From NCBI GenBank assembly GCA_964555185.1, contig CAZKRD010000002.1, positions 120,438 to 184,437 of the forward strand: a stretch of DNA of 64,000 bases. Direction: 5' to 3'. The notes beneath the pieces were generated by a model. The model was not told the DNA's origin. It ran no database searches and saw only the letters and a program-made list of their open reading frames with translations. The translations under genes were made by a program, and so were the position numbers. Shown piece by piece: positions 630-16,342 of the stretch; positions within the stretch are counted from its first letter, which is position 1; each line of letters begins with the position of its first letter. Source of the stretch: an uncultured Candidatus Saccharibacteria bacterium. GTDB lineage: Bacteria; Patescibacteriota; JAQUNI01.

Positions 630-2204
630 TTAATATTGTATTCTCAACCCTTTAAGGTAGCTTTGGACATACAATTTTGCTCTACTGATCACGAGGTGGG
701 GATTTTTTCCAATTGAATTGATCGCCCATAATACTTTTTCATTTAACGGTATTTTCTTTAGCGCAAGATGGTTAAGTTCTTGTAAAACGTTTTCTAAGTA
801 ACTAAAGGGCACAGTGTCACTGAAGGAGCGAATTACATTATCTCCATTATACATAAAAAAATTCTCAAATCTTTCTTGGTTACCAATAATGTTATGCTTT
901 TTGCAAAGATTCCATACTGCCGTTCCTGGATAAGGAACGGTAAGATAAACTTGAAAGAAATCTATCTTTTTAAGATTGGTTAAAATAAATTTTTTAGTTT
1001 CTTCGATCTCCGCTTTTGTCTCTGTTATAGAGCCGATCATGAAATTGCCAAATATATTTAATCCGGCCTTTCTAGTTGTTTCAATAGCCTTCTGATTTTG
1101 GGCTACCGAAACGGTTGGTCCTTTAAGAAACTTAAGCACTCGATCAGAACCGCTCTCAAAGCCAAATTCCAATTGTCTACAACCTGCTTGTTTCATTTTT
1201 CTTAGGAGAGGGAGCGCGTTTTTGTCAAGAAAATTTACTCTTACCTGACAGGACCAGATCATTTTTTTGTGATAACCTTTTTGGATCATCGCATTACAAA
1301 GTTTTATAACGCGGTCTCTATTGGCAATAAATAAATCATCATGAAAAAAGAGGGCTTTTACACTAAGATCATTAATTAATTCATCTATTTCTTTCATTAC
1401 ATAGGGAATGGAATGGGTCCTATATTTTTTTGCGATAATGTTGCTCGCGCAAAATTTGCATTGATAAGGGCAGCCTCGTGAAGTCAGAATACTTGTGCTT
1501 CGCCGAGCAGGAAGACCCCTGATCAATTGGCGAGGCGCTAAGTAATATTCGAGGTTAAAAAGTTTACGATCGGGGGGCGGAATTTTGTCTATATCCAAAA
1601 TAAGTTCTCGCTCGAGAGTTTTAATAATTCTACCATTCTTGGTTCGAAAAGCCAGCCCCTTTATTCTTTTTAAGCTGTCCGTGTTTAATTTGCCATCTTT
1701 TTTGAGCCAGGCTGTACATAGTTCGTTGATTGTTTCTTCAGCTTCGCCCAACAGGATAACATCTATTTTGGGATAATCGCGAAGTGTGCGTTCTGGTAAA
1801 ATTGATGCATGAATACCTCCGACAATAATTAAGACATCTTTTCTTATTTTTCTCATTTTACGTACTAGCGCGCCCGTTCTGACAATTTGGGGTGTGGTCG
1901 AGCTTATACCAACAATATCTGGTTTTTTCCGAAAAAAAATCTCCAAAATAGAATCCCCTGCGTTTTCATCTGCTAAACTGATATTAATATTACCCGGGTT
2001 ATATTTTTTCAGATATGATGAGATATAGCCAATCCCGAAAGATATATATTGATGTCTGCCTCTTACCGGAATTACCAATAATAGTTTTAATTTTTTTTTC
2101 ATGGAACAGAAATTCAATTTAGTCTTTCGGAGTAATGAAGAGCTCGGGGAAGGTTTTTTTTGGAAAATGAGTTTTATGAACTCTCTTGGATTTTTGGAAT
2201 GCAT
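630..2204 (-). CDS. Class B (cobalamin-binding) radical SAM enzyme
   Basis: 524 aa. The N-terminal B12-binding-like domain includes ...VGISSTTPQ...IIVGGIHAS.... The radical SAM motif is SRGCPYQCKFCAS (CxxxCxxC). Confidence 0.75.
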   Translation of the reverse strand: MHSKNPREFIKLIFQKKPSPSSSLLRKTKLNFCSMKKKLKLLLVIPVRGRHQYISFGIGYISSYLKKYNPGNINISLADENAGDSILEIFFRKKPDIVGISSTTPQIVRTGALVRKMRKIRKDVLIIVGGIHASILPERTLRDYPKIDVILLGEAEETINELCTAWLKKDGKLNTDSLKRIKGLAFRTKNGRIIKTLERELILDIDKIPPPDRKLFNLEYYLAPRQLIRGLPARRSTSILTSRGCPYQCKFCASNIIAKKYRTHSIPYVMKEIDELINDLSVKALFFHDDLFIANRDRVIKLCNAMIQKGYHKKMIWSCQVRVNFLDKNALPLLRKMKQAGCRQLEFGFESGSDRVLKFLKGPTVSVAQNQKAIETTRKAGLNIFGNFMIGSITETKAEIEETKKFILTNLKKIDFFQVYLTVPYPGTAVWNLCKKHNIIGNQERFENFFMYNGDNVIRSFSDTVPFSYLENVLQELNHLALKKIPLNEKVLWAINSIGKNPHLVISRAKLYVQSYLKGLRIQY

Positions 2205-2234
2205 ATTAGTTTTAACATTTTTAAGTGGCGAGAA

Positions 2235-3455
2235 TCAGGAAATTTTACAAATATCCTTAGAATCCTTACTCATAGCTTTTGATAACATATTAACCCACCT
2301 TGAATCCCCCAATACTTTAAAAGTATGTAATGTATTGGGTTTAATCACAAAAATATCTCCTTTTTTTACAATAAAATCTTTTTTTAAATTAGTATTTATA
2401 TCTAGTAAGGACACCTTAATCCTGCCATCTATAATATAGAAGCCCTCTTTAGTCTTTTTATGGTAATGGTTTCCCCTTGTGCATCCTTTTAGAGACTCAA
2501 TATAATTTATTTCTTCCCACTTTTCACCTTGCATAATTCCTGTCAATTTGCCTCGACCATCAGTAAAAGAAAAATAAGGGCTGATTAAATTTCCAAAAAG
2601 ATAATGTAACGATTTTTTTACGCTGGGACAAGAATCTCCTAATATCTGCCTGCTATATCCAGTATTCAATGAACTATCTTGAGCAATTGACCCATCTAAT
2701 GGTTGCCTGCATCTCTTAATTAATGATTTGTCTTTTCCCATTACTTTAGCTACCTGAACAGCAAAATTATAACGAGAGATTTTTTTCTTGCCCGCGATAT
2801 GGATAATGCCTCTATAATCTTTATTAATTAATTTTTCTATTGAGTCAGTAAGATAGTCAATATAGGTTGGTGTATAAAAGACATCATCAAAAATATCCAC
2901 TGTTTTGTTTTGTTTCAGGCAGTCTAATAAAAAATTAAAAAAGTTTCCGCCTCTTCCGTATACATTAGCGGTGCGACAAATGATATAATTTTTCAATTCA
3001 TCTTGAATATCCTTTTCCGACATGGCTTTTGTTTTGCCATAATAAGTTTTAGGATTTGTTGTCTCACTTTCTTTGTAATTGCCTTTTTTTCCGTCAAAAA
3101 TATAGTCAGATGACATAAAAACCAGCTTTATATTGGGATTAACTTTTGCTATTGCCTTAATAAAATTTTTTGTGCCGTCAATATTAACTCTTTGGGCATT
3201 TTTTTGATCTTTTTCGCATTGAGCTAAACTACTAATGCCAGCTGCGTGGATTATTATCTTAGGATGAACTTTTTTAACAATATCCAATACTGCTTTGATG
3301 CTGGTAATGTCTAATTTATAGGTCTTTTCTTTTTTAGATTGATTTAAAGTTGAAGCATAAATATCATAATTATTATCATTCTGCAGCTTTTGTCTTAAGT
3401 TGGATCCAATGTAACCATCAGCTCCGGTAATTAATATTGTTTTTTTGTTTTCCAT
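2235..3455 (-). CDS. Fused NAD-dependent sugar epimerase/reductase (N-terminal) and cupin (C-terminal) domains; a sugar-nucleotide modifying enzyme
   Basis: The N-terminus has the Rossmann motif ILITGADGYIGSNL and an RmlD/epimerase-like fold, including YGKTK. The C-terminal ~130 aa look like an RmlC/FdtA-type cupin (HYHKKTKEGFYIIDGRIKV...). Confidence 0.55.
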   Translation of the reverse strand: MENKKTILITGADGYIGSNLRQKLQNDNNYDIYASTLNQSKKEKTYKLDITSIKAVLDIVKKVHPKIIIHAAGISSLAQCEKDQKNAQRVNIDGTKNFIKAIAKVNPNIKLVFMSSDYIFDGKKGNYKESETTNPKTYYGKTKAMSEKDIQDELKNYIICRTANVYGRGGNFFNFLLDCLKQNKTVDIFDDVFYTPTYIDYLTDSIEKLINKDYRGIIHIAGKKKISRYNFAVQVAKVMGKDKSLIKRCRQPLDGSIAQDSSLNTGYSRQILGDSCPSVKKSLHYLFGNLISPYFSFTDGRGKLTGIMQGEKWEEINYIESLKGCTRGNHYHKKTKEGFYIIDGRIKVSLLDINTNLKKDFIVKKGDIFVIKPNTLHTFKVLGDSRWVNMLSKAMSKDSKDICKIS

Positions 3456-3469
3456 AATTTATAAAGTTT

Positions 3470-4903
3470 TTATTTATTATTAGGTTTAGACATTTTAATA
3501 GAATAAGCTAATATTTTTTTAGTTGCTGTCAACAAGCCCTCTCTTTTGATTTCGCTTGTTATAAAAAAACCTAATGTCTTTGGCTTTTTGAACAATACAT
3601 GTCTATACCACATCTTCCAGCCCAAATGAAACATTTCCTCAATTTTATTTGCTGGATAATCCAGATATGAGACCGCGCTTTTTCCAGTTGCATCAAAATA
3701 ACCAGGATCTTCAGAGATTAGCCATCCGTTTGTCTTCGCCTTTTTGTAAAATGTCGTACCAGGATAGGGTGTGGCAATAGCTATTTGGACAAGATCAGGA
3801 TTTGCGGCAATAACATCTTGTAACATCTGGTAATCCTTCTTCCACGTTGATTTACACAAACCGACCATCAAATTGACATAAGATTTCATCCCTAATTTTT
3901 TACATTGCTTAATAATTTCTAAAAGCCTTTCTCTTTTCAAGGGCTTTGGAATTGCCTTCAAAACATCTTGATCTAAATGTTCTAAGCCATATTTGTAAGT
4001 CACACATCCCGCCCTGGCCAGAAGTTCCAATGTTTCGTCATCCACTAAGCCGTCACCCATACATAGCCACTTCACTTTTAGTTTTCTGTTCATTATTTCT
4101 CCACAGATCCCATCTATATGTTTTTTGCTAGAGACCATATTATCGTCATCAAAATAAATTTCGTCAAATTTATATTTTTTTTGTAAATATTCCATCTCAT
4201 CCACTACGCTCTTGGCACTCCTCATACGGTAGACGTGTTTTCCGTAAAAGGATTCTACATTGCAGAAGCTGCACTTAAGACGGCAGCCCCTTGATGAAAC
4301 CATAATAATATTTCTGCCGTAGCAAGAAGGCTCATTATAATATTCAATCGGGGTATCATCTCTTTCGGGGAAAGGCAACAAATCTAAATCCGTAACTAAA
4401 TCAGGTTTATCATATTTTCTTTTTTGTGCGCTGATGAAATTCTTAGGGAGAATTTTACGATCAGATTTAAAAAATTCCAAAAGAGAAAATTCGTATTCAC
4501 CAACAATAGAATAATCAACCCGTGTTTTTTTTAAACACTCAAAAGGGTAATTTGTCGCGTAATTACCCACAGCTATTTTTTTAATATTTTTATCAACTGA
4601 ATCAAGTAACCTTTTATCATCTTCTACGCTAATCCATGTTGGTTCACAGACAATATGAGTTGGTTTAATTTTTTCTATAAAATCAATTGTTTTCTCAAAA
4701 CTCCATTTCATAGCCACTGCATCTTTGAAAACAGCATCAAGTCCATTCCTTTTTAATAAAGATGTTGTATATCCCATAAACCACGGATAGGGATAATATC
4801 TTAAAACGGCAGATCCCTCTTTGGTGGTGTTATACCATCTTGATCCGGACTTTAATACTAAACCCGGTAAATTAAGTATGAGTATTTTGTGCATTTGAAT
4901 CAA
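3470..4903 (-). CDS. Class B (cobalamin-binding) radical SAM enzyme
   Basis: 477 aa. The motif SSRGCRLKCSFCNV is a CxxxCxxC. An N-terminal B12-binding-like region is present. Its architecture matches the 630..2204 protein. Confidence 0.75.
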   Translation of the reverse strand: MIQMHKILILNLPGLVLKSGSRWYNTTKEGSAVLRYYPYPWFMGYTTSLLKRNGLDAVFKDAVAMKWSFEKTIDFIEKIKPTHIVCEPTWISVEDDKRLLDSVDKNIKKIAVGNYATNYPFECLKKTRVDYSIVGEYEFSLLEFFKSDRKILPKNFISAQKRKYDKPDLVTDLDLLPFPERDDTPIEYYNEPSCYGRNIIMVSSRGCRLKCSFCNVESFYGKHVYRMRSAKSVVDEMEYLQKKYKFDEIYFDDDNMVSSKKHIDGICGEIMNRKLKVKWLCMGDGLVDDETLELLARAGCVTYKYGLEHLDQDVLKAIPKPLKRERLLEIIKQCKKLGMKSYVNLMVGLCKSTWKKDYQMLQDVIAANPDLVQIAIATPYPGTTFYKKAKTNGWLISEDPGYFDATGKSAVSYLDYPANKIEEMFHLGWKMWYRHVLFKKPKTLGFFITSEIKREGLLTATKKILAYSIKMSKPNNK

Positions 4904-4919
4904 TTTTTTAGAAAACTAA

Positions 4920-6137
4920 TTATATAATGCAATCGGACAGATTTTTAGTAAGTAATTTATTAATATCTATGGTTTTGACAAACTCTTTGATATTAGCTTG
5001 ATACTCCTTCTGGAGATTTTCATCCAAAATAAATCTTTTTATTACCTTGATGATTTCATCTTTTTTATTATTAACCGCCAAGCAAACTCTCTTCTTACCT
5101 AATTCTTGAACAATGGCTGGAACCTTGGAAGCAATAGTTGGTATTCCAAAGCTTAAATAATATTTCACCTTGGCTGGTTCAGTGTATTTCATAAAATTTT
5201 CTTCATCTTTGTACAAAGCTACTCCTAAAATATTATTCACCATAAGTTTTGTGAATTTTTTTCCCTCTTCCACAAATCCATGAAAAATAATATTTTTTTC
5301 TAAACCTAATTTTTTTGCCAATTTTTTAAAATACTCTTCGTCCGGGCCACTGCCAATCAAGTTTAATTTGATTTTTTTAAATTCTTTTGCGAGTTCAAGA
5401 ACCACACTAAATAATAGATCAAGTAGATGATATCTATTTATGACGCCGCAATACACCAAAGAGAACTTATTATTCTCATTAATCGGCTTAGAAATAAATT
5501 TTTTCACATCTATCCCTAGAGGAATAATTTGATAGTCATGTTTACGGCGATCAAAATACCCGTATTTTTCTCTACCAATTATATGGCCTAGGGTGGTAAA
5601 CCAGATTGAATCGCTATTATTTAAACAAAATTGATCAATAATATAAAACACCCTATTTAAATATCTATATATACCCGCTGGTGGTAAAGGAAAAAAATCC
5701 ATTACGCGATAGATAACAAAATCAACTTTCCCTAACTTTTTTAGGATTAATCCACACAAGGTGCAAAAATAGTTGACCCCCATAAAGATCCTCTTCTTCC
5801 GCCTTGGCCTTTTCCGCAATAGAATAAGTGCTTGAGATAAATAAATAAGATAATTTAACGGTAGAAACAAAAAATACAAAAATTTATTATCAAAAACAGG
5901 TATTGAAAAGATAACTCTCTCGGATACCTTTGATTTATCTCTATAATGAATTAACGAAGAATGCATTCCCCCTTTACTATGGGGAAATTTCCATTTAAGG
6001 TAGGTAAAGTCAGCAAAATTATTAATAAAGTAACTGACATAGTTTTCTAACCCAACCGGCACAAATGAACAAAATAATAGACTGTTTTTTTTGTCCATAG
6101 TATTGCTTTTTATATTTCCAGCTTTTCCAAAGAACAT
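4920..6137 (-). CDS. Glycosyltransferase, family 1 (GT4-like)
   Basis: 405 aa. The C-terminal GT1 signature is ...LVYCGVINRYHLLDLL...IGSGPDEEY...FHGFVEE.... Confidence 0.55.
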   Translation of the reverse strand: MFFGKAGNIKSNTMDKKNSLLFCSFVPVGLENYVSYFINNFADFTYLKWKFPHSKGGMHSSLIHYRDKSKVSERVIFSIPVFDNKFLYFLFLPLNYLIYLSQALILLRKRPRRKKRIFMGVNYFCTLCGLILKKLGKVDFVIYRVMDFFPLPPAGIYRYLNRVFYIIDQFCLNNSDSIWFTTLGHIIGREKYGYFDRRKHDYQIIPLGIDVKKFISKPINENNKFSLVYCGVINRYHLLDLLFSVVLELAKEFKKIKLNLIGSGPDEEYFKKLAKKLGLEKNIIFHGFVEEGKKFTKLMVNNILGVALYKDEENFMKYTEPAKVKYYLSFGIPTIASKVPAIVQELGKKRVCLAVNNKKDEIIKVIKRFILDENLQKEYQANIKEFVKTIDINKLLTKNLSDCII

Positions 6138-6309: not shown

Positions 6310-6975
6310 TCATCGATTTTTTAGATGACTATTATATCTGGTAAGATGACCCTGACTTCCCTTTTTATAACATAAAAGCTTTCCTGAACTTGGCTTGGGG
6401 ACGCAGATATTGGGTTTAGCTAGTTTTTTGTATTTTAAGAAAAAAAGAAGACCGGCACTCAAGGTGGGAATGAAAATCAAATTACTAACAATGCTATTTT
6501 TTAAGAAAGGTAAAGCCATGATATAACATTGAGTTAGCCCTGAAATTGTATGAGGATACATATTCCAGAGAAGCCAGACGCCAAAATTAGTATAAAGATA
6601 AAAAAACACAGAAGCTCCCATTCCCATTCCGGTCAAGCTTAAAATAAATTTATAATTGTACCCTCGTTTTTTTCGGATCAGCCAACCCAAAAAACCGATG
6701 ACTGCCCAGGCCGACCACGTAAAGAGCAGGATGGGATCATTGCCGATGTACATATCAGAGAGTGCGATCATCGTGAGAGGGACGATAAAAGTGTAAAGAC
6801 CACCCAAAAGCGACCCAGCCAAGAGAGTGCAGACGGTGATTGTTTCGATATTAGGAATGTCCTTTAAGAGAATCCGGCCTCCAGCGCCTAAAACAATCAA
6901 AAAGACAGCAAGTTTCATTTTTGTTTTGTTTAGATTTTTTGTTTCCATATTTTTTTCAAAAGGAACTCTCTTCAA
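6310..6975 (-). CDS. ECF-transporter S-component-like membrane protein; possibly a CbrT-type cobalamin substrate-capture component
   Basis: 221 aa, about 6 predicted TM helices, with the size and topology of ECF S-components. It overlaps the downstream DUF4430 gene by 20 nt. Confidence 0.4.
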   Translation of the reverse strand: MKRVPFEKNMETKNLNKTKMKLAVFLIVLGAGGRILLKDIPNIETITVCTLLAGSLLGGLYTFIVPLTMIALSDMYIGNDPILLFTWSAWAVIGFLGWLIRKKRGYNYKFILSLTGMGMGASVFFYLYTNFGVWLLWNMYPHTISGLTQCYIMALPFLKNSIVSNLIFIPTLSAGLLFFLKYKKLAKPNICVPKPSSGKLLCYKKGSQGHLTRYNSHLKNR

Positions 6976-7393
6976 ATTTAAATTCTATTTTGTCTCCGGG
7001 TGAAACTTTTTGTTCAGAAACCCCCACCGGCGCCATTTCGGAATTAAAATAGTAGAGCCAGTATTTGTTTTGCTCTCCGTTTTTGATACCGTCAATTGCC
7101 TCAACTAAAACACCAAAATCGTATTCTTTAATCTCGAGAGTAATCTTATTTTGACCTGCTAATTCTAAAAGGAGCGCATAAACAGTTTTTTCTTCGCTAA
7201 AGTATAGATCAAAACTTTTAGTTTTGTTATTGCCGAAGTCGATCGTAAAATTGATTTTTTCTTTTTCTTCAGTTTTTGGGATAGGTTCGGTTTTGGGTTC
7301 TTGGCTATTGGTGTCTTGTTCCGGACAGCCAGCTCCGGTGATGATCATTAAGGAGAGAAGCAAGGGGATTAAGAGAATAGTTTTTTTACACAT
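6956..7393 (-). CDS. DUF4430-family lipoprotein (transcobalamin-like fold; putative B12-binding)
   Basis: Signal peptide plus lipobox (ITGAGC). The C-terminal KYWLYYFNSE...VSPGDKIEFKF resembles the DUF4430 consensus (W.YYVNG...DGD.I.W.Y). Confidence 0.5.
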   Translation of the reverse strand: MCKKTILLIPLLLSLMIITGAGCPEQDTNSQEPKTEPIPKTEEKEKINFTIDFGNNKTKSFDLYFSEEKTVYALLLELAGQNKITLEIKEYDFGVLVEAIDGIKNGEQNKYWLYYFNSEMAPVGVSEQKVSPGDKIEFKFEESSF

Positions 7394-7432: not shown

Positions 7433-8266
7433 TTAAATCTGAAATAAATCAAATATTTTTTCCGAAAAAAAGAAGTTATCTTTTTTTAAAACGAAATTGT
7501 TATGGTGAGCCAGGATAGAGAACGGTGAGCGGTCTAAGAGAGGGGTCAGTCGTCGCAAGAGAGGATAAAGCCGATTAGTGATTCTAGGGGGATATTCAGG
7601 AATTAAGTTCGATTTCCAGCTTTGAACTATACTTAAGCCGTGTTTTTTAAAAAGAAGTTTAATCTCTGTGTCACCAAAAAGAACATTGTGTTTAGGAAAG
7701 CCCAAAGCAGCGGACAGGTACTCAAGATAAGCCAGTCGTCTTGGGGTTTTAAAGATAAACAATAGTCCATTGTCTTTTAATACTCTTTTTAGTTCGGTTA
7801 AGACCCCATTTAATTCCTCGGGTGGTTCCACGTGTTCAATGACGGCGTAGGCGGTAATCAGATCAAAGTGTTTATCCGGAAAAGGAATCTCCCGGTCATT
7901 GAAATGGCTAAAATTGATTCCGAATGTTTTGTGGAATTTTTCCCAGATTAGTTTTTGTTGAATCAGGGTGTCGCTAAAATTCGGATCTCTCTGGCTTTTG
8001 TTGTTTTTTGTGTCAATTGCTTGGATTTCTACTCCATTAATCAGTTGGGAGAGAATGATTGCGAAAATTCCTGATCCAGTGCCAAAGTCTAGGATCTTAA
8101 AGCCATTTTTTAGATATTTTGCGGTAAATCTCGCGTCCGAATAGACAGAATCCATATAGAGCCTGCCGGAGAGCATGTATTCAATAGATGTTAAATAAGA
8201 CCACTGATTTTTTTTGTTGTTGGCTTGGCTGACAACATTAAATATTTTTTGAGTGGTTGGCCTCAT
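7433..8266 (-). CDS. Class I SAM-dependent methyltransferase
   Basis: Motif I ILDFGTGSGIFAI. Acidic motif II is present. 277 aa. Confidence 0.65.
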   Translation of the reverse strand: MRPTTQKIFNVVSQANNKKNQWSYLTSIEYMLSGRLYMDSVYSDARFTAKYLKNGFKILDFGTGSGIFAIILSQLINGVEIQAIDTKNNKSQRDPNFSDTLIQQKLIWEKFHKTFGINFSHFNDREIPFPDKHFDLITAYAVIEHVEPPEELNGVLTELKRVLKDNGLLFIFKTPRRLAYLEYLSAALGFPKHNVLFGDTEIKLLFKKHGLSIVQSWKSNLIPEYPPRITNRLYPLLRRLTPLLDRSPFSILAHHNNFVLKKDNFFFSEKIFDLFQI

Positions 8267-8299: not shown

Positions 8300-9238
8300 C
8301 TAAGATTTTGCGGGGTTTATTTTAGGATGATATTTTTTAATCTTTGGCAGGATTTTGATTCCGGCAGCAAACCCCTTAAGATAAGGTCTAATTCGGTTCA
8401 ATTGAGCGTAACGGATAAAGATCAGACAGTAGGAACAAAGGAAGAGCGGGTTGAAGAGCAAGAGGAAAATCAGGAAGTTAGGCAGGGGCGCAAATTTTTT
8501 CATAAAGATTATTCGGTTGCGGGCAAAATAGTAGATCCGGTAGGCCGTGCTTCTGACCATCACATTTTCAGCGAGATCGGTAGGGATCGCGATATCGTGA
8601 TAGACTAAAGCTTCCGGACAAAACAGTACTTTGTAGCCATTGAGTTTTATTCTCATGCTCCAATCCGCTTCCCCGTAGCTCATTACGTAGCGAGGATCCA
8701 TCATTCCTATTTTTCCGATTATCTCTCTTTTTACCAGCCAGACATTAGGCGCATGGTCAGTTTCTTTTACTCTATTGTATTGTCCCCTGTCAATTTCGTT
8801 GAGGCCAATGTATTTTGTTCGGCTGGTTAAAAGGTTTACTTTGTTTCCGGCAAACCAGATCCGATTTGGCTCTTTCAAATAATACATTTTAGGGGCGACT
8901 AAGCCCGCTTGACTGTTGTTTTGAGCGAGCTCAACAAGTTTTTTTAAGAAGTTTGGATCAAAAACATTATCACTGTCAACAAAGCAAAGTAGATCACCGA
9001 CCGCCTGCTTGATTCCTTCGTTTCTAGCGATTACCGCTCCCCCATTAGTTTTCCGTTTTATTAATTTGGTTTGGGGAAACAATCTCTCGATCATCGCATT
9101 TGTTTTATCGGTTGAAGCATTGTCCACTATGATAATTTCAAAAGGGCCGTAACTGGCGCGGAGCAATGAATTTAGGCACCGCTTAAGTTTTGCTTGGCGG
9201 TTGTAGGTCGGGATAATAATTGAGACCAGCGGATCCAT
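8300..9238 (-). CDS. Glycosyltransferase family 2, with C-terminal TM segments
   Basis: N-terminal SIIIPTYNR, DNASTD, and the DxD region VDSDN. Confidence 0.7.
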   Translation of the reverse strand: MDPLVSIIIPTYNRQAKLKRCLNSLLRASYGPFEIIIVDNASTDKTNAMIERLFPQTKLIKRKTNGGAVIARNEGIKQAVGDLLCFVDSDNVFDPNFLKKLVELAQNNSQAGLVAPKMYYLKEPNRIWFAGNKVNLLTSRTKYIGLNEIDRGQYNRVKETDHAPNVWLVKREIIGKIGMMDPRYVMSYGEADWSMRIKLNGYKVLFCPEALVYHDIAIPTDLAENVMVRSTAYRIYYFARNRIIFMKKFAPLPNFLIFLLLFNPLFLCSYCLIFIRYAQLNRIRPYLKGFAAGIKILPKIKKYHPKINPAKS

Positions 9239-9241
9239 ATT

Positions 9242-11113
9242 CTAGTTGAAAAATTTAAGATACCAAAGCAGGTAGATATAAATAGCCCAGATTTTCATCG
9301 CGTGGTCTTCCCTTCCTTGGCAGTGTTCTCTGATAAGGCGAGTGAGGTAACTTTTATTTATTTCCTCCGGACAGCTTTTATGGATAAGTCCCAGTATTTC
9401 CGGGGCAAGATCAGAGATCCATTTTGCCAGAGGCAGGCCGAAACCTTTTTTGAAGCGATAAATTATTTCTTTGGGCAGATACTTTTGGGCAATTTTTTTT
9501 AAAATGTATTTTGTTTCCCGGCCCCGCACCTTATATTCAAAAGGAATTTGGGCGGCGTATTCAATCACTTCCTTATCCAAGAAAGGAGAGCGGACTTCTA
9601 AGGAATGGGCCATGCTCTGGCGGTCTACTTTGTGAAGATACATATCGGCAAGCATTAATTTAGTGTCTAAGTAGATCATTTGGTCATTAGCTTTATCTTG
9701 TTGATGGTCGCGGAGCAGGAAATCAACATCTTCTCTAAAGAGTTTGTTGTCTATTTTTTGAGCTGGAAGCAGATCATTCTTTACTTCTTGGGGCGTAAAG
9801 GGGCTGACCCAAAATTGGTTGCGGTAGCGAGGAGGGTAAGGAAGACAAGCAATAAACCTTTTCGTTTTGTAATTGAATATTTTATTTTTTGGTTTTAACG
9901 GGAGCAAGGTTGTAAGTTTAGCAGCAAGGTTGTTTTTGATCACCCGAGGGAGCAGATCATACCAGGCCGCGTAGCGATGGATATAATATTTAGGATAGCC
10001 GCCAAAGGCCTCGTCTCCCCCATCGCCGCTTAGGGCGACACTGACTTTTGTCTTGGTAAATTTTGATAAGAGGTAAGTGGGCAGGATAGAGGGTTCGGCT
10101 AAGGGCTCGTCCATTTTTTCTAATATTTCAGAAAGGATGTCAAGCACTTCTGTGACCTTGAATATTTTCAGGTGGTGATCGGTATTATATCTGCGGGCAA
10201 CTATTTGGGCAAAGTTTGATTCGTTGAATTCTTTTTCTTCGAAACCAATCGAGAAGGTCTTAAGTTTCTTGCCTTTTAAAAACTTCGACATCATCGCGAC
10301 CACGAGGCTGCTGTCTAATCCCCCGCTTAAGAAAACGCCCAAGGGTACGTCGCTTACTAATCTTTTCTCCACCGCTGCTGAAATTTTTCGCTCCAGATTA
10401 AAAACAAGTTCCTTTTCCGGAGACTTCGTTTTTGGGGTGAACTTAAGATTCCAGTATCTTTTAACCTCCAGTTTCAGATTGCGAAGATTCAATTTTAAAT
10501 AGAAGCCAGGGGGTAGGCTTTTAACATTTTTAAAAAGAGTCTGGGGAGCGGGCGTGTAGCCAAAAGAGAAATATTTGATCATTCCCCTTTCACTTATTTT
10601 TTTGGGGAAGCGAGGGAAGAGGAGGATGGATTTGATTTCCGAGGCAAAGACAAATTCTTTGTTTTGAAAATAGTAATAGAGGGGTTTCTTCCCTAATCTG
10701 TCCCGGGCAATCAGGATCTCCCGGGCGCGCTTGTCATAAATGCAAAAAGCAAACATTCCCGAGATCTGCTCTAAGAGTTTTTCTTTAGATTCTTCATAGA
10801 GATGGACTAGAACCTCGGTATCTGTCTTAGTCGAAAACAGGTGGCCTCTGCTTTCCAATTTTTTTCTTAATTTAGCAAAATCATAGATCTCTCCGTTAAA
10901 GACAACCGCGATGCTTTTATCTTCGTTATAGATCGGTTGATTGCCGCCCGCAAGGTCAATGATTGATAACCGGCGGATCCCGATTGCAAAGTTGCGATCA
11001 AAGAATTCCCCCTTCGCATCCGGGCCGCGGTGTTTGATCGCCTCCTCCATTTTAGCAAGGATTTCGATTGGCCTCCTGATTCTTTGTGAATAGAATCCTG
11101 TTATTCCGCACAT
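9242..11113 (-). CDS. asnB: Asparagine synthetase (glutamine-hydrolysing)-family amidotransferase, as found in O-antigen/uronamide loci
   Basis: MCGITGFY with the catalytic Cys2. SGGLDSS PP-loop. 623 aa. Confidence 0.8.
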   Translation of the reverse strand: MCGITGFYSQRIRRPIEILAKMEEAIKHRGPDAKGEFFDRNFAIGIRRLSIIDLAGGNQPIYNEDKSIAVVFNGEIYDFAKLRKKLESRGHLFSTKTDTEVLVHLYEESKEKLLEQISGMFAFCIYDKRAREILIARDRLGKKPLYYYFQNKEFVFASEIKSILLFPRFPKKISERGMIKYFSFGYTPAPQTLFKNVKSLPPGFYLKLNLRNLKLEVKRYWNLKFTPKTKSPEKELVFNLERKISAAVEKRLVSDVPLGVFLSGGLDSSLVVAMMSKFLKGKKLKTFSIGFEEKEFNESNFAQIVARRYNTDHHLKIFKVTEVLDILSEILEKMDEPLAEPSILPTYLLSKFTKTKVSVALSGDGGDEAFGGYPKYYIHRYAAWYDLLPRVIKNNLAAKLTTLLPLKPKNKIFNYKTKRFIACLPYPPRYRNQFWVSPFTPQEVKNDLLPAQKIDNKLFREDVDFLLRDHQQDKANDQMIYLDTKLMLADMYLHKVDRQSMAHSLEVRSPFLDKEVIEYAAQIPFEYKVRGRETKYILKKIAQKYLPKEIIYRFKKGFGLPLAKWISDLAPEILGLIHKSCPEEINKSYLTRLIREHCQGREDHAMKIWAIYIYLLWYLKFFN

Positions 11114-11130
11114 AGCTTTAGTTCGATTTC

Positions 11131-11817
11131 TTAAATTTTTTTAAATTTTGCGAAGATAATCGCAAAACCTTTGCTTTTTTGGTATTCTTTATTTAACAGT
11201 TTTAGGATTTTGTTTTCAAAAAACAATTTTCTGCCAAAAAACCACTTGGCAAGATAGAGGTTATTTACTGCTAAAATTTCCCAGAAACGTCCACGCAGGC
11301 GCATATCTTGAAGCGCAAAACCGTTTTTGCGGGCCAAAGACTTTATTTCTCGTGTTGAGTAGTGACGGTGGCCAGAAAGCCACCAGGCCGGGTCAAAGGT
11401 GTTTGCTAAAAAGGATTGGTTTTGGGTCGATAAATAAAAAGACCCTTTTGGCCTTAGGACCCGACGAATTTCAGAGAACATCTTATTTTCTTTATTTTTT
11501 GGTATATGTTCAATCACTTCCCAGCTGACCACGGTGTCAAAATAATTTTGAGGGAAAGGGAGTTTGACAGCGCTCCCTGTTTTAAAGAAAACATTGTTTC
11601 TTTTAACGTTTCGGTTTGCGATCTCCAAGTTCTTTTTGGTAAGCTCTAGGCCAATGATTTTTCTGGATTCTTTCTGGGAGGCATACAATTCAAACCAGCC
11701 AAAGCCGCAGCCGATGTCCAGGATGATTTTGTTCTTGATGTCATTGTCTGCGACAAAACTTGCCGAGTATTTGGTGCGGCCGGCAAGGTTGCGAGCTGAT
11801 CCGATATTGATGTCCAT
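11131..11817 (-). CDS. Class I SAM-dependent methyltransferase
   Basis: ILDIGCGFGWFE motif I. VVSWEVIEHI. 228 aa. Confidence 0.65.
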   Translation of the reverse strand: MDINIGSARNLAGRTKYSASFVADNDIKNKIILDIGCGFGWFELYASQKESRKIIGLELTKKNLEIANRNVKRNNVFFKTGSAVKLPFPQNYFDTVVSWEVIEHIPKNKENKMFSEIRRVLRPKGSFYLSTQNQSFLANTFDPAWWLSGHRHYSTREIKSLARKNGFALQDMRLRGRFWEILAVNNLYLAKWFFGRKLFFENKILKLLNKEYQKSKGFAIIFAKFKKI

Positions 11818-11833
11818 TGTTTTTTGGTTTTAA

Positions 11834-12862
11834 TCACCAGTTTTTACGGTCCATCATCCTGGTTTTGTGGAAAACCAGCATTTCCAGAGAACGACTGGCG
11901 TAGATAAATAGAGTAATTAAACAGGCGATTGGATGGAAAAACCAAGCAGAATTTGGTTTTTTAGAGTAACCCCTGATTGCTTGCAGGCAGGTGGGAAAGA
12001 CAAGAGAGGAATAAAGGCAAAATTTGAATATCTTAGAGAGGCTTTTTTTGCTGGCCCAAGGGTAGACTCTTTTGTCGTTACCCTTGTTTTTGAAGTGCAG
12101 GAAATCAAGAATCCTTCTGGTTTGTTTACGGCAAAAGGTTTTTAAGTTCGGCGCATAAAGGTGATAAATACCCACATCTACTTTAGCAAAAGATTTGTGC
12201 TGGTTTACTGCCAGATCATAAGTGGCGTCAATATCAAAAAAGTAATCCTCTTTTGCATATTTTTCTACAGCTTTCTTCCTTACTAAAAAGCCGTTTGCTC
12301 CAATGGTGGGAAACTCGTCCCCGAGAGCTGCAACCTTAAGATATCTATCTTTTTTCTTTTGGCTTACTTTAATCCCGGTCCATTTGCCGGTTAGATAGTT
12401 GAAGCGATCATAATTTCCCAGAAACATACAGAGGGGGTCGTTTGCGCCGATTAACGAGCAGTACTGGTTGATTAGGCCCTCTTTTTTTCGGGTGTCATAT
12501 CTTAATGGCTCTGATCCTGTGATTTCTGGGTCGCGGAAGGGCCTGGTCATTTTAAGAAGCCAGTCCGGCCTGGGCAGAATATTGTCCGAGTCAATAAGCA
12601 GGATTAATTCGTTTTTCGCATTGTCAATCCCGGTTGCTTTTCCAGCTTCAGAAGTTTTAAGCGGGTTTTTGATTATCCGGGCGCGGAAACTTTTGGCAAT
12701 TTCTAAAGTGCTGTCAGTTGACCCTCCGTCTACAATAATAATCTCGATTAAATCCGGGGGGTAATCTTGTTTTTGGACAGAAGACAAAGACTCGCGCAAG
12801 GTGCGCGATGCGTTGAGGGTTGGCATAACCACGGATATTGAGGGGAGGTTTTTTAGCCGCAT
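11834..12862 (-). CDS. Glycosyltransferase family 2
   Basis: SVVMPTLN, IVDGGSTD, and DSDN (DxD). Confidence 0.7.
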   Translation of the reverse strand: MRLKNLPSISVVMPTLNASRTLRESLSSVQKQDYPPDLIEIIIVDGGSTDSTLEIAKSFRARIIKNPLKTSEAGKATGIDNAKNELILLIDSDNILPRPDWLLKMTRPFRDPEITGSEPLRYDTRKKEGLINQYCSLIGANDPLCMFLGNYDRFNYLTGKWTGIKVSQKKKDRYLKVAALGDEFPTIGANGFLVRKKAVEKYAKEDYFFDIDATYDLAVNQHKSFAKVDVGIYHLYAPNLKTFCRKQTRRILDFLHFKNKGNDKRVYPWASKKSLSKIFKFCLYSSLVFPTCLQAIRGYSKKPNSAWFFHPIACLITLFIYASRSLEMLVFHKTRMMDRKNW

Positions 12863-12904
12863 TTTACTCTTTAAGATAAAAAAAGAAGAGGACTTGAAGA
12901 GGAC

Positions 12905-13720
12905 TTAGAGAAAGGCGTCCTCTAGAGCGCGGGGGCAGGGGCAGGTTCGCCGCCCAGGGATAGATTCAATCATTTTAAGGATTAGTTTTTTAACCCTTTG
13001 CTCATTCTTTTTGAAAACCCGCAAAACCTCCTCCGCGGTTACGGGCTTTATATTTTGATACCCAGCAAGCCCTGTATCGTAATCCGTGATCAGAGCGACA
13101 TTAAGATAACAGATGGAAAGCTCACGTGCCAGAATTACTTCTGGGTAGGCGGTCATATTAATTACCTCCCAAGCCTGATCCTGAAACCATCTGCTTTCTG
13201 ATTTTGTCGAAAACCTGGGACCGGCAATCACCACGATCGTTCCTTTCTGATGATGGGGGATTTTTAGATTCTCGCAGGCTTTGTTTGCCACTTTCCGTAA
13301 GACTGGACAGTAAGGGTCGGCAGCGGAGATGTGGGCTGTTTGCGGGCCGTCAAAGAAAGTGTCAACTCGATTTTTGGTACGGTCAACAAATTGGTCGCAG
13401 ATCACAAAATCACCAGGTTTTACTTTCGGGTTCAGACTCCCACAAGCGCAGGGAGCAATAATTTGTTTCACGCCCAGTTTTTTCATCGCCCAAAGATTAG
13501 CGCGATAAGGGATTTTGTGGGGCGGTAGGGTATGGTTTTTACCGTGCCGCGGCAGGAAGGCAAGCCTTTTTCCTTTGTATTCGCCCAAGGTAATTTTGTC
13601 TGACGGCTTGCCATAGGGAGTGTCTACTTCTATTTTTTGCGGTTTTTGGAGCAGACTGTATAGTCCTGAACCGCCGAAGATACCGATATTAGCTTTGGCT
13701 TTTTTTGGTTTTGCAGACAT
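12905..13720 (-). CDS. mtnP: S-methyl-5'-thioadenosine phosphorylase (also cleaves 5'-deoxyadenosine)
   Basis: IGIFGGSGLY, full-length PNP/MTAP family, and ...HGKNHTLPPHKIPYRAN...VINMTAYPE.... Confidence 0.8.
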   Translation of the reverse strand: MSAKPKKAKANIGIFGGSGLYSLLQKPQKIEVDTPYGKPSDKITLGEYKGKRLAFLPRHGKNHTLPPHKIPYRANLWAMKKLGVKQIIAPCACGSLNPKVKPGDFVICDQFVDRTKNRVDTFFDGPQTAHISAADPYCPVLRKVANKACENLKIPHHQKGTIVVIAGPRFSTKSESRWFQDQAWEVINMTAYPEVILARELSICYLNVALITDYDTGLAGYQNIKPVTAEEVLRVFKKNEQRVKKLILKMIESIPGRRTCPCPRALEDAFL

Positions 13721-13827
13721 ACTGGCTATTTAATGTCAAATTTCAAAATCCAAATGACCAAAATTTGGCATTTGACATTTAGATTTGATTTGACATTTAT
13801 CATTTGAAATTTGAAATTTATTAACGG

Positions 13828-14346
13828 TTAGCTTTCAAATTTCAACAAAACGTGTTTTTTGTATCCTTTAATCTTCTTATATCCTTTTAGACTTAGCAAT
13901 TCTCCTAGGAGCGCAATGCCGATAATTTTAGCACCAAGTCTTTTAATAATTTTGATTGTTGCCTTGAGAGTATTCCCGGTCGCGAGAACATCATCAACAA
14001 TCAAAACCCTCTCCTCTGGTTTAATCGTGTCTTGGTGCATTTCCAAAACATCTTTGGCGTATTCATAGCTGTATTGTTCGCGAAGACACTTAAAAGGCAG
14101 TTTTCCTTTTTTGCGGACAATCGAGATGCCGGTTTTGAGTTTGTAGGCCACACCAGAAGCAAGTAGGAATCCTCGCGCATCAATGCCAACCACTTTTTGA
14201 ATTTTGGAATACTGAAAAGGCCTGGCCAGAGCGTTGATTGTATAGTGATAAACTCGAGCGTCTTCTAAGAGTGGCGTAATGTCTTTGAAACTTATTCCTT
14301 TCTTGGGAAAATCAGGGATTACCCTGATATATTTTTCTAGATTCAT
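13828..14346 (-). CDS. apt: Adenine phosphoribosyltransferase
   Basis: IPDFPKKGISFKDITPLL. PRPP-binding loop VLIVDDVLATGNT. I moved the start to the internal Met (MNLEKYI...) that matches the canonical APT N-terminus. The track ORF begins 13 codons upstream. Confidence 0.75.
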   Translation of the reverse strand: MNLEKYIRVIPDFPKKGISFKDITPLLEDARVYHYTINALARPFQYSKIQKVVGIDARGFLLASGVAYKLKTGISIVRKKGKLPFKCLREQYSYEYAKDVLEMHQDTIKPEERVLIVDDVLATGNTLKATIKIIKRLGAKIIGIALLGELLSLKGYKKIKGYKKHVLLKFES

Positions 14347-14431
14347 AATCTGTAAATTAGAAATGACTAATGCCCAAAATCCCAATTGGTAATTTTAGAT
14401 TTAATGAGAAGTTTCGTTAAGATCCTATATT

Positions 14432-14857
14432 TTACCCTGTATCTCTAAAGACATCAAATTTTTTGTAGGCTCGAAAGATTAAGAAGTAGGAAAGGGTTTT
14501 AAGGTGGTTCCCGATATCATCAAGGATAAGATGAAGGGTTAGACCAGAAGATAATCCAATTAGGATAGGGTTCCATTCTTTGTAATAGGTCAGAAGCCAG
14601 AGCAGTAATAGTAGTTCATAAGAATGAAGAGGAACATATGCCTTGTGGTTTTTTCGGCGCATGTAATTTTCAGTCAAGAAAAAGTCTTTGAGATTGAAAT
14701 ATCTGTCAGGCCGTGAGATCAAGAAATCAAGGATGTGGTCAAGATCAATAAAGATGCCGGAAAGAATCACTGCTAAACTCGCTGCTGTTGATTTTAGGAA
14801 ATAGTAGATTACGAGAGCTAAGACTACTGAAGAAAGGATATGGGTTCTTGGCTTCAT
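14432..14857 (-). CDS. Membrane-bound metal-dependent hydrolase (DUF457/YdjM-like)
   Basis: 141 aa, 3-4 TM helices. IFIDLDHILD... motif. Confidence 0.45.
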   Translation of the reverse strand: MKPRTHILSSVVLALVIYYFLKSTAASLAVILSGIFIDLDHILDFLISRPDRYFNLKDFFLTENYMRRKNHKAYVPLHSYELLLLLWLLTYYKEWNPILIGLSSGLTLHLILDDIGNHLKTLSYFLIFRAYKKFDVFRDTG

Positions 14858-14866
14858 TATTTTGTT

Positions 14867-16342
14867 TTAGGTTTTTGTTTTTTTAAAGTCAATAAGATGG
14901 CCAATGACGGCTTTCGCTCCCCGGCCAAAGTATCTAAGATCGTCAAGATTACGGATTGAGATCACTTGGCGGAAGATAAATTCGGGATCAAAGGCTACCC
15001 TATAGGTTTTTTGGACTAATTCTTGCAGTTTTTCCTCTGAGATTGGACTTTTCATAATCGCTTCACGCATATCGTAGCGATTCCAGTCCAAGGTCTTAAG
15101 CCAGCCCCGCTCTTTGCATTCTGAAAAAAGCGGGGTGCCTGGATAAGGAATCACGATTGTTGCCTGCAGGGTTTTGGCATACCCTTTGCGTAAGAGGTAA
15201 CAGCCCAATTTCATAGTTGCGCGTGCGTCTTCCTCTTTTTCCCAAGAGTAACCGAACATAATGGTTAAGTGAGGAGAGAGTCCGGCTTTAGCCGCCCTTC
15301 GGCAAGACTTTATAATTTTCTCGACGGTCATATTTTTATTGATTCTATCTAAGGTTTTCTGGCTGGCCGATTCCAAACCAAAGAGCAGAAAACGGAAGCC
15401 CGCTTCTCTCATTAATTGATAGCCTTTGCTATCCACAGCGTCAAACCGTAGATTACAATCCAAGACCATTTTTTGATTGTAACCCTTTTTGATCATCCCT
15501 TGACAGAAGCTTTGAAGCCATTTTCCTGTTGGTAGAGTGCCGGAGTCTTCCATAATTTCTCGGACACCTAAATTAATTAATCTGCCCACTTCTTCTACGG
15601 CCAATTCCGGACTTCTTGTTCTGTGAGTCCCTGGTGGAAAAAGAATGTGATTCCAGGAACAGAAAGTACACTTGCCCCACCAGCAGTCGCGGCCGCTCAT
15701 CATATAAGTACCGGGCGTGCGTGAGAAATTGCCATTCTGATAAGCATAGAGTTGCCATTTGGTCAGTTCGCGGTCAATAAAAGGGAGAGAGTCAAGGTTG
15801 TGATTTAATTGAAAAGGGCCTGTGTTTTTAATCTTTCCGTTTTCGCGAAACCAAAAGCCAGGTTTAAGCTCCTTCCCTTTCGAAAGATGATTAGCAAGAT
15901 TTAAGAGCATAAAGTCATAGTCGCCGCCGGTTAGGATATAGTCAACAGAAGAGTTCTCCAAGGATTCTTTAGGTAAAGATGTAACATGGTCACCCATCAG
16001 GGTAATTTCCAATTTCCAATTTCCAATTTCCAAATTTTTCTTTTTCAATTCGTCAATTATTTTCCAGTGATGCTTTACGGTTGGAGTTTTGGTTTCAATC
16101 GCGACGAGATCGGGTTTTTCTTTCAATATCCTTTTTTTCCATTCAGGGTAACTTAATTTTTCCGCGATACCGTCATCCCAAAAAATACCATACCCTTCTT
16201 TTTTTAACAGAGTAGCGGCATAGGCCGGCACCATTGGATAGATATAGGTGCAGGAGGAAAAAGTCTGATATTGCCGGTTTTGGCCGATCATCGGCGTCCC
16301 TTGTATTTTCGGCAGGGGTGGATAAGATATCGCAATTTTCAT
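14867..16342 (-). CDS. Class B (cobalamin-binding) radical SAM enzyme with atypical Cys spacing
   Basis: 491 aa. B12-binding-like N-terminus. The cluster motif is SGRDCWWGKCTFCSW, a CX4CX2C rather than CX3CX2C. It contains an in-frame (AATTTCC)x4 heptanucleotide repeat. Confidence 0.65.
   Translation of the reverse strand: MKIAISYPPLPKIQGTPMIGQNRQYQTFSSCTYIYPMVPAYAATLLKKEGYGIFWDDGIAEKLSYPEWKKRILKEKPDLVAIETKTPTVKHHWKIIDELKKKNLEIGNWKLEITLMGDHVTSLPKESLENSSVDYILTGGDYDFMLLNLANHLSKGKELKPGFWFRENGKIKNTGPFQLNHNLDSLPFIDRELTKWQLYAYQNGNFSRTPGTYMMSGRDCWWGKCTFCSWNHILFPPGTHRTRSPELAVEEVGRLINLGVREIMEDSGTLPTGKWLQSFCQGMIKKGYNQKMVLDCNLRFDAVDSKGYQLMREAGFRFLLFGLESASQKTLDRINKNMTVEKIIKSCRRAAKAGLSPHLTIMFGYSWEKEEDARATMKLGCYLLRKGYAKTLQATIVIPYPGTPLFSECKERGWLKTLDWNRYDMREAIMKSPISEEKLQELVQKTYRVAFDPEFIFRQVISIRNLDDLRYFGRGAKAVIGHLIDFKKTKT

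Follow-up and report, generated by a model that had tools for sequence, protein, structure and literature searches.

A predicted cobalamin uptake pair beside class-B-type radical SAM proteins in a surface-glycan locus of the Patescibacteria

We analysed a 64-kb stretch of contig CAZKRD010000002.1 (the window) from a genome of the Patescibacteria (Candidate Phyla Radiation, CPR), focusing on a minus-strand block at 630-21400. Bacteria of this group are without most pathways for making cofactors and live at the expense of other cells. The block is part of a locus for surface-glycan biosynthesis that extends over at least 37 kb, and it includes adjacent genes for a DUF4430 protein and a DUF6580 membrane protein, along with genes for three radical S-adenosylmethionine (SAM) proteins (rSAM1, rSAM2 and rSAM3). 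The DUF4430/DUF6580 pair is very probably a corrinoid uptake system, since its fold, its remote homology to CbrT, the NrdJ/BtuR neighbourhoods and the cobalamin riboswitches at orthologous loci all agree. Recruitment of this pair into the glycan locus is well supported, and the cell-surface sugars are probably dependent on borrowed B12. The overall reading that we favour, and regard as reasonably likely, is that a cobalamin scavenging pair within a glycan locus feeds class-B (cobalamin-type) rSAM clients.

Fold and remote homology of the DUF4430/DUF6580 pair

The predicted model of DUF6580 is confident (predicted local distance difference test, pLDDT, 87.7) and has the fold of a small six-helix integral-membrane S-component of energy-coupling factor (ECF) transporters. 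An alignment of 38 DUF6580 sequences contains 24 invariant residues. When the DUF6580 profile was searched against PDB sequences, the top match was 6fnp_A, a 182-residue chain of ECF-CbrT described as 'Membrane protein', which we take to be CbrT; the match runs end-to-end, with a common D-[IL]-P-N-V motif, and hhalign gives the pairing 88% probability (E 3e-6). The window protein matches only PF20221 and not PF12822, whereas CbrT matches PF12822 (51 bits) and not PF20221. CbrT was thus rejected as a DUF6580 member, and the relationship between the two remains remote; PF12822 is additionally present in 3 of 120 DUF6580 homologues. Searches of the PDB with the single sequence of either protein returned nothing useful, and profiles and predicted structures were required. 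No paper mentioning DUF6580 was found in the literature searched.

The DUF4430 model is of somewhat lower confidence (pLDDT 80; above 85 for residues 45-145). The 19 best Foldseek matches are all to RUMGNA_00854 (a DUF4430 structural-genomics protein), intrinsic factor, transcobalamin and haptocorrin (E 2e-6 to 9e-5), and superposition on an isolated human beta-domain gives a template modelling (TM) score of ~0.76 (E ~1e-5). The transcobalamin-like fold proposed for this protein in an earlier note, which was made from the sequence of the window alone, is thus borne out by both PF14478 and structure. The literature found includes no bacterial DUF4430 member with demonstrated cobalamin binding. 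One Falkowbacteria locus (L039, 3434-5266) encodes a 610-aa protein in which a prenyltransferase/SQHop-cyclase-like alpha-toroid is joined to DUF4430, the full architecture of animal transcobalamin; this gene is followed directly by another DUF4430 gene and then by DUF6580.

The same note had described an ECF S-component-like protein overlapping a DUF4430 lipoprotein. The family assignments hold (via fold and CbrT homology for the former and PF14478 for the latter), but the overlap depends on the choice of start codon. Candidate starts of DUF6580 are TTG 6975, ATG 6948 and ATG 6918, the last giving the recorded 202-aa product (P0001). Only with TTG 6975 is there an overlap with DUF4430 (20 nt), and the alignment of homologues favours 6948 or 6918. 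The DUF4430 lipobox (ITGAG-C) is imperfect in the window copy and canonical in several homologues.

Genomic context of the pair in other genomes

One scan of species-representative genomes yielded 80 DUF6580 loci (given L numbers here), nearly all from CPR and one from a DPANN archaeon. Open reading frames (ORFs) were called, and neighbours were annotated by phmmer and hmmsearch with queries from loci with recorded Pfam content. In 46 of the 80 loci, the gene immediately upstream of that for DUF6580 encodes DUF4430. In 37 of the 80, a gene for NrdJ or for BtuR/CobO, a cob(I)alamin adenosyltransferase, is present within 8 kb, typically in the order NrdR-NrdJ-BtuR-DUF4430-DUF6580. The one NrdJ tested (from L011) is a class II ribonucleotide reductase (RNR), with the T. 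maritima B12-dependent RNR as best PDB match (450 bits; the next-best entry, which is not of class II, scores no more than 261 bits). The gene order is kept in the DPANN locus (L086, an Iainarchaeum metagenome-assembled genome, MAG), which suggests that the module is common to two groups of ultra-small symbionts.

Cobalamin riboswitches (RF00174) were identified in 7 of the 28 loci scanned (L011, L012, L019, L033, L057, L076 and L077), with scores of 35.7-73.9 bits, above the gathering score. All seven occupy the gap that separates BtuR from the pair, directly upstream of the latter and in coding-strand orientation. Weak nhmmer matches to the L011 riboswitch, uncalled by Rfam, are present in the BtuR-to-pair gap of L031, L071 and L007. 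Two further loci have a riboswitch just downstream of DUF6580 (RF00174 at 8493-8612 of L054, AdoCbl-II at 7552-7606 of L079), followed by a protein of 609-659 aa that has no Pfam match and may be a further B12-regulated surface factor. In L054, the class III (B12-independent) RNR NrdD follows.

A second type of neighbourhood involves class-B rSAM proteins. Genes for such proteins (PF02310 above cutoff, with DUF4070) directly adjoin the pair in L048, L058, L061, L062, L066, L068, L082 and L083. In L079, an orthologue of rSAM3 (51% identical; PF02310 at 27.6 bits) overlaps the start of DUF4430 by 4 nt. Thus, direct adjacency occurs in nine species, and in a tenth the rSAM gene is ~2 kb away. At none of the 80 loci do the rSAM and NrdJ/BtuR contexts occur together. 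The importer seems to accompany the B12-dependent enzyme that each lineage has retained, which is class II RNR in most lineages and class-B rSAM in some. Because class-B rSAMs recur beside the pair in unrelated CPR lineages, we lean towards functional coupling, in which the pair supplies cofactor to the neighbouring rSAM clients.

The closest relatives of the window locus form a small clade (L004, L010 and L055; DUF6580 67-72% identical). Its backbone is Wzx-GT2-SDR-GT2-rSAM3-YdjM-(GT2)-apt-mtnP-DUF4430-DUF6580 (GT, glycosyltransferase; SDR, short-chain dehydrogenase/reductase), with differing glycan genes inserted at differing points. The series from rSAM3 to DUF6580 is kept in all three loci despite the insertions. 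L004 encodes another B12-rSAM directly after DUF6580.

Predicted class-B architecture of the three radical SAM proteins

All three proteins match PF04055 (57-69 bits) and have an Fe-S cluster motif, CX3CX2C in rSAM1 and rSAM2 and CX4CX2C in rSAM3. PF02310, the B12-binding domain, is found above its cutoff (32.1 bits) in rSAM1. The HpnJ model is the top NCBIfam match for each of the three (146-173 bits vs a cutoff of 578), with BchE also among the best for rSAM1 and likewise under its cutoff. The best NCBIfam matches of rSAM2 and rSAM3 are all B12-rSAM families (HpnJ, BchE, BzaD, ApyD, PhpK and others), below equivalog cutoffs. Scores this far under the cutoffs indicate that none of the three is an orthologue of these enzymes. 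The HpnJ alignment spans residues 34-446 of rSAM2 (E 1e-50) and residues 75-463 of rSAM3 (E 1e-42); the BchE model spans residues 37-449 of rSAM3, and in both proteins the N-terminal domain is included. Pairwise identity among the three is only 24-27%, and they therefore represent three subfamilies rather than recent paralogues. We conclude that these are class-B-type enzymes, as judged from sequence, from three separate subfamilies; use of cobalamin by rSAM2 and rSAM3 is predicted from family membership. Many rSAM2 relatives form part of very large proteins (1000-2600 aa), in some of which rSAM-like sequence occurs in 2-4 separate places; these are unusual multi-rSAM fusions.

Evidence against the favoured reading and alternative explanations

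Several observations count against the reading that imported cobalamin serves the neighbouring rSAMs, and we gather them here with the competing explanations. The first group concerns cobalamin use itself. AprD4 (PDB 6fd2) is the best-scoring solved structure for rSAM1 and rSAM2, and it ties with MgmA (9ccb) for rSAM3; other PDB matches of rSAM1 are OxsB, MgmA and TokK. The N-terminal 200 aa of rSAM2 have no PF02310 match even at E<=10, and those of rSAM3 reach only a sub-threshold 15 bits (E 0.018). AprD4 and ArsL have related Rossmann-like domains that bind no cobalamin (PMC12931638), so class-B architecture alone is no proof of cobalamin use. Some of the rSAMs, rSAM2 especially, might thus be cobalamin-independent radical diol dehydratases with an N-terminal domain that no longer binds B12, which together with an adjacent SDR reductase would deoxygenate a sugar. 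The RmlD-like reductase that flanks rSAM2 would suit such a role, a radical enzyme and a reductase being paired in AprD4/AprD3. We consider this alternative unlikely. In alignments with the profile of the rSAM2 family, TsrM, TokK, CysS and OxsB cover the N-terminal domain as well, and AprD4 is matched over the core alone. PF02310 is present in 47 of 51 rSAM2 homologues, the NCBIfam AprD4 model scores 50 bits on rSAM2 (vs 173 for HpnJ), and a B12 importer is encoded next door. Of the B12-binding-like N-termini that the earlier note had attributed to all three proteins, that of rSAM1 is thus recovered by PF02310 directly. Those of rSAM2 and rSAM3 are not, and are supported by full-length alignment to B12-rSAM families and by their homologues.

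The second group concerns the meaning of gene proximity. The block at 1-6300 (GT4, rSAM2, RmlD-cupin, rSAM1 and a cut AsnB) has a GC content of 0.30-0.36 and negative GC skew, whereas the remainder of the run (6300-22000) has a GC content of 0.37-0.43 and positive skew on the same coding strand, with a sharp break near 6300, at the stop codon of DUF6580. L004 and L055 have other genes in this position. The composition break indicates a laterally acquired block or an exchangeable cassette, so the adjacency of rSAM1 and rSAM2 to the pair is in part the result of cassette insertion rather than an old operon, and could be an accident of insertion. Thus, rSAM3 is the long-standing neighbour of the pair, and rSAM1 and rSAM2 arrived by cassette exchange. 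In the Doudnabacteria MAG (L055, 7470-8511), DUF4430 and DUF6580 are both frameshifted and rSAM3, mtnP and apt are intact, as a result of either pseudogenisation of the importer or assembly errors.

The window also lacks some of the features expected around a B12 importer. A cobalamin riboswitch, which the earlier note had proposed to look for elsewhere in the operon, was not identified by Rfam in the whole window at the gathering threshold or in 1-22000 at E<=5, and the gap between the pair and the upstream methyltransferase gene is 39 nt. Sub-threshold Rfam matches in the window (PhrS, snoRNAs) were rejected as chance. Nor was a riboswitch found in the 10 stand-alone DUF4430-DUF6580 loci scanned. 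The 64 kb of the window yielded no gene for an ECF A/T module, BtuR or NrdJ, and no ECF A/T genes were noted in relatives' loci whose neighbours carry Pfam annotation.

The main rival explanation treats the gene order as a relic. The pair, YdjM and apt-mtnP would be left over from an ancestral CPR nucleotide-metabolism neighbourhood (NrdR-NrdJ-BtuR-DUF4430-DUF6580-DCD-YdjM, where DCD is a dCTP/dCMP deaminase) into which glycan cassettes were inserted; the importer would serve an RNR from another part of the genome, and its closeness to the rSAMs would be functionally meaningless. This is consistent with the dominance of the NrdJ/BtuR context, with the deaminase encoded downstream of the pair in 14 of the 80 loci, and with YdjM-DUF1287 fusions downstream of DUF6580 in L007 (10131-11336), L009 (9684-10877), L020 and L029. 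The insertion points of glycan genes differ between the window, L004 and L010, the foreign low-GC block begins right after DUF6580, and MTA phosphorylase genes (MTA, 5'-methylthioadenosine) paired with apt are common without rSAMs. A relic does not readily account for two unrelated class-B rSAM subfamilies that abut the pair in nine species outside the window clade, with frames overlapping or near-touching, where chance would give an estimated <=~1/80. Loci of the rSAM type never also have NrdJ or BtuR, and the run at 630-21400 is on one strand with short gaps. We therefore regard the relic explanation as improbable, and retain coupling of the pair to the rSAM clients.

A third explanation extends the coupling to the mtnP-apt genes. 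B12 import, radical glycan chemistry, removal of 5'-deoxyadenosine by MtnP and recycling of adenine by Apt would form one module, all arms of which are selected to stay together. Identification of the two enzymes as MtnP and Apt, as in the earlier note, was confirmed, both scoring above NCBIfam equivalog cutoffs. MTA phosphorylases (MTAP) accept 5'-deoxyadenosine (as in the dihydroxyacetone phosphate, DHAP, shunt), and the genes are contiguous as rSAM3-YdjM-apt-mtnP-DUF4430-DUF6580 in L055 and as apt-mtnP-DUF4430-DUF6580-B12-rSAM in L004. The linkage of apt-mtnP to the pair or to rSAMs is confined to the narrow clade of L004, L010 and L055. Among the 80 species loci, MTAP and adenine phosphoribosyltransferase (APT) genes occur near DUF6580 in two (L010 and L055). 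A metagenome scan with an MTAP alignment gave a further set of 80 loci (49-71% identity), of which only one (L093) encodes a class-B rSAM, DUF4430 or DUF6580 within 7 kb of MTAP, leaving 79 without. We take L093 to be the same contig as L055 because the two agree in length and gene order, and wider MTAP-rSAM synteny in metagenomes was rejected, there being nothing beyond L055's own contig. APT adjoins MTAP in ~17 of the 80 metagenome loci with no rSAM nearby. Pfam scans of window ORFs revealed no MtnA-like isomerase, MtnK or aldolase (for 5-deoxyribose 1-phosphate) among those covered.

Given that MTAP-APT is widespread without rSAMs and that its linkage is lineage-limited, we interpret mtnP-apt as a generic adenine-salvage unit. 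Its position here reflects lineage-specific synteny and is no evidence of a dedicated arm. Cleavage of 5'-deoxyadenosine by this MtnP is chemically plausible but unlikely on current evidence, having no specific genomic support, and a module with all arms under joint selection is improbable. The dedicated 5'-deoxyadenosine salvage arm that had been suggested for this locus is therefore not upheld. Of the self-contained module in which it was placed, the B12 uptake pair in a glycan locus stands, on the basis of fold and context, and the by-product detoxification arm does not.

Organization of the glycan locus

All ORFs at 630-21400 are on the minus strand in a single run with short gaps, with gene positions as previously listed in the earlier note. 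A Pfam and NCBIfam census of the run (Table 1) identified three rSAMs, four GT2 and one GT4, two class I methyltransferases, an RmlD-like reductase-cupin, AsnB, two more SDRs, a Wzx flippase, DUF4430, DUF6580, MTA phosphorylase and adenine phosphoribosyltransferase. The glycosyltransferases, methyltransferases and AsnB amidotransferase previously listed as glycan neighbours were recovered, and the supposed epimerase-cupin fusion is instead an RmlD-like reductase with a cupin domain (188 bits to the rmlD model, under its cutoff).

Table 1. Genes of the minus-strand run at 630-21400 of the window, with predicted functions.
Predicted product	Coordinates	Strand	Supporting matches
rSAM1, class-B, B12-binding domain and rSAM core, CPYQCKFC at residue 245	630..2204	-	PF02310 66 bits, PF04055 69 bits
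RmlD-like 4-keto-sugar reductase with C-terminal cupin (WbuC/Polysacc_synt_C-like)	2235..3455	-	PF04321 187 bits; PF14667 and Cupin_2 at residues 298-385
rSAM2, class-B-type, diverged N-terminal Rossmann-like domain, CRLKCSFC at residue 207	3470..4903	-	PF04055 alone
GT4-family glycosyltransferase, last gene of low-GC block 1-6300	4920..6137	-	PF00534, PF13692, composition break
Membrane protein of family DUF6580 with an ECF S-component fold, predicted to be specific for cobalamin, distantly homologous to CbrT	6310..6948 (start uncertain)	-	PF20221 113 bits
DUF4430 secreted/membrane-anchored protein, transcobalamin beta-domain fold, predicted extracytoplasmic corrinoid binder (CbrS-like)	6956..7393	-	PF14478 51 bits (cutoff 23.8)
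Class I SAM-dependent methyltransferase	7433..8266	-	PF13489, PF08241
GT2 glycosyltransferase	8300..9238	-	PF00535 127 bits
AsnB-type glutamine amidotransferase (exopolysaccharide (EPS)-associated type)	9242..11113	-	PF00733 312 bits; TIGR01536 506 bits, above cutoff; TIGR03108 557 bits, below cutoff
Class I SAM-dependent methyltransferase	11131..11817	-	PF13649, PF08241
GT2 glycosyltransferase	11834..12862	-	PF00535 82 bits
MtnP, 5'-methylthioadenosine phosphorylase	12905..13720	-	NF005876 345 bits (cutoff 306); TIGR01694 304 bits (cutoff 275)
Apt, adenine phosphoribosyltransferase	13828..14385	-	NF002636 205 bits (cutoff 125); TIGR01090 197 bits (cutoff 186)
YdjM-like small membrane protein, 141 aa	14432..14857	-	PF04307 29.3 bits, borderline; orthologues in L004, L010, L055
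rSAM3, class-B family member, CX4CX2C (CWWGKCTFC at residue 220)	14867..16342	-	PF04055 57 bits
GT2 (Glyco_trans_2_3 type), constant upstream partner of rSAM3	16339..17334	-	PF00535, PF13632; same place in L090, L091, L092, L004, L055
SDR sugar-nucleotide dehydratase/decarboxylase (UXS/ArnA-like or 4,6-dehydratase-like)	17459..18409	-	PF16363, PF01370; NCBIfam matches
Small GT2 resembling polyprenyl-phosphate sugar synthases (PgfS, ArnC, PpgS, AglJ)	18421..19182	-	PF00535 95 bits; sub-cutoff NCBIfam matches
Wzx-type (MOP) flippase	19151..20446	-	PF01943, PF13440
GalE-like SDR epimerase/dehydratase, first gene of the run	20459..21400	-	PF01370 201 bits; galE model 190 bits, below cutoff

Glycan genes extend to ~37 kb and encode UDP-glucose dehydrogenase, an RmlA/B/C/D set, GT4s, one GT2 and a Wzy-like protein. 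A second AsnB-like gene is truncated by the window start. The promoter/terminator scan was uninformative (17 terminator-like sites vs 19.5 expected). Patescibacteria-named homologues of the window proteins are from Kerfeldbacteria, Falkowbacteria, Doudnabacteria and Nealsonbacteria, and sequence identical to the window recurs on contigs of up to 355 kb. Loci L001-L003, suspected of being strain variants because of their differing gene lengths, were rejected as such, being 100% identical to the window and differing in gene calls alone.

YdjM-like proteins are encoded near the pair in both neighbourhood types, as the 141-aa form between rSAM3 and apt in the window clade and as the YdjM-DUF1287 fusion at NrdJ-type loci. 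Elsewhere in the window, we identified a second deoxy-sugar set at 27471-32240 (RmlA, RmlB, an RmlC-like protein and a NUDIX protein), which includes an unusual HD-domain-RmlD fusion of 464 aa at 28410-29804. At 47011-53005 are genes for a [NiFe]-hydrogenase large subunit, small subunit (Oxidored_q6), FAD/NAD-binding Fe-S subunit and 4Fe-4S dicluster protein, a cluster that resembles the cytoplasmic group 3 hydrogenases reported in CPR.

The rSAM3 cassette and possible sugar chemistry

The rSAM3 family is large (5659 homologues at E<=1e-10), and its members closest to the window protein (57-62% identical) are from Nitrospinae, Omnitrophica, Auribacterota, Methanoperedens and CPR. Most of the best 120 homologues have PF02310, and 119 of the 120 have CX4CX2C instead of CX3CX2C. 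This variant was considered and rejected as a novelty, since it has precedent in the cobalamin enzymes OxsB and GenD1 (PMC9204698, PMC4340712). The family profile, from position 64, aligns to residues 165-475 of OxsB. The cassette Wzx-GT2-(SDR)-GT2-rSAM is kept in Nitrospinae (L090, L091), Methanoperedens (L092) and CPR, with rSAM3 always after a GT2 of the Glyco_trans_2_3 type; in the window, the rSAM3 start overlaps the upstream GT2 stop by 4 nt. The conservation of the rSAM3 cassette across both prokaryotic domains is new.

The small GT2 (PgfS/ArnC/PpgS-like) and the SDR (UXS/ArnA-type) of the cassette make a lipid- or nucleotide-linked sugar a likely substrate, and from sequence we predict such a sugar to be the most likely substrate of the rSAMs. 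By analogy, C-methylation (as by GenK and GenD1), HpnJ-like ring chemistry and AprD4-like deoxygenation with an adjacent reductase may all be compatible with the locus. Literature searches on B12-rSAM in polysaccharide loci found nothing.

Proposed mechanism and implications

We propose that the membrane-anchored, CbrS-like DUF4430 protein would capture B12 outside the cell and pass it to DUF6580, which, as an ECF-type S-component, would carry it across the membrane. In most related genomes the pair, placed in an NrdR-NrdJ-BtuR operon and often behind a cobalamin riboswitch, would feed a B12-dependent RNR. In the lineage of the window, the pair appears to have become part of a glycan backbone without a riboswitch, followed by the low-GC cassette GT4-rSAM2-RmlD-cupin-rSAM1. 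Imported cobalamin would then be the cofactor of three rSAMs that modify sugars, through C-methylation or an HpnJ- or AprD4-like rearrangement or deoxygenation. The mtnP-apt genes would provide ordinary adenine salvage, and could also clear 5'-deoxyadenosine. What the analysis shows directly is the identity of the genes, the folds and distant homology of their products, the neighbourhoods compared between genomes and the riboswitches. The transport substrate in this organism, the use of cobalamin by rSAM2 and rSAM3 and the sugar chemistry are predictions.

From the comparative evidence, corrinoid uptake emerges as a concrete function for two DUF families that are widespread in CPR. New here are the predicted assignment of DUF6580 and DUF4430 as a CPR B12 uptake pair, with one DPANN example, and the observation of such a pair in a glycan locus beside class-B rSAMs with no riboswitch. 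We advance more tentatively, as a possibility that goes beyond the favoured reading, that CPR and at least one DPANN archaeon share a two-part B12 scavenging system (a DUF4430 binder and DUF6580, possibly without an ECF motor), undescribed in the literature searched, which here was recruited to three cobalamin-dependent rSAMs making C-methylated or rearranged sugars. If so, the surface glycan of an obligate symbiont would depend directly on B12 from its host or community, and vitamin supply would be a lever on surface structure and host interaction. The analysis also draws attention to the very conserved Wzx-GT2-GT2-rSAM cassette common to bacteria and archaea.

Comparison with known systems

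The closest precedent is the nrdJ-cbrS-cbrT-pduO cluster of Lactobacillus delbrueckii, which led to the discovery of CbrT (PMC5997447; PDB 6FNP). DUF6580 resembles ECF-CbrT in its S-component fold and in the profile and hhalign matches given above, and the CPR loci resemble the cluster in that a small partner gene lies upstream and that genes for an adenosyltransferase and a B12-dependent RNR are close by. We infer that this partner, CbrS, is a DUF4430 protein; in L. rhamnosus, a DUF4430 gene is located beside rtpR (PMC9963975). The adenosyltransferase is PduO in L. delbrueckii, whereas the CPR loci have the BtuR/CobO type, and no ECF module was seen near the pair. The window differs further in having glycan genes and class-B rSAMs as neighbours, with no RNR and no riboswitch. 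BtuM of Thiobacillus denitrificans is a solitary S-component-like B12 transporter (PMC6072759; PDB 8c7p, 8ovv) that has no detectable sequence similarity to DUF6580 and no DUF4430 partner.

The window DUF4430 protein shares PF14478 and the beta-domain fold with transcobalamin, intrinsic factor and haptocorrin, but consists of that domain alone, preceded by a signal or anchor peptide. The adjacency of MtnP and Apt is like that at ~17 of the 80 related loci, and differs from by-product salvage in the MTA cycle or DHAP shunt in having no general linkage to rSAMs. With GenK, GenD1, HpnJ and OxsB, rSAM1 to rSAM3 share an rSAM core and an N-terminal B12-type Rossmann domain, the latter predicted from family membership in rSAM2 and rSAM3; their context is a Wzx-dependent glycan locus rather than an antibiotic or hopanoid pathway. 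The pairing of GT2 with rSAM3 recalls that of HpnI with HpnJ. Thus, the component parts are all of known kinds: class-B rSAMs, an S-component with a CbrS/CbrT-like beta-domain binder, and MTAP/APT.

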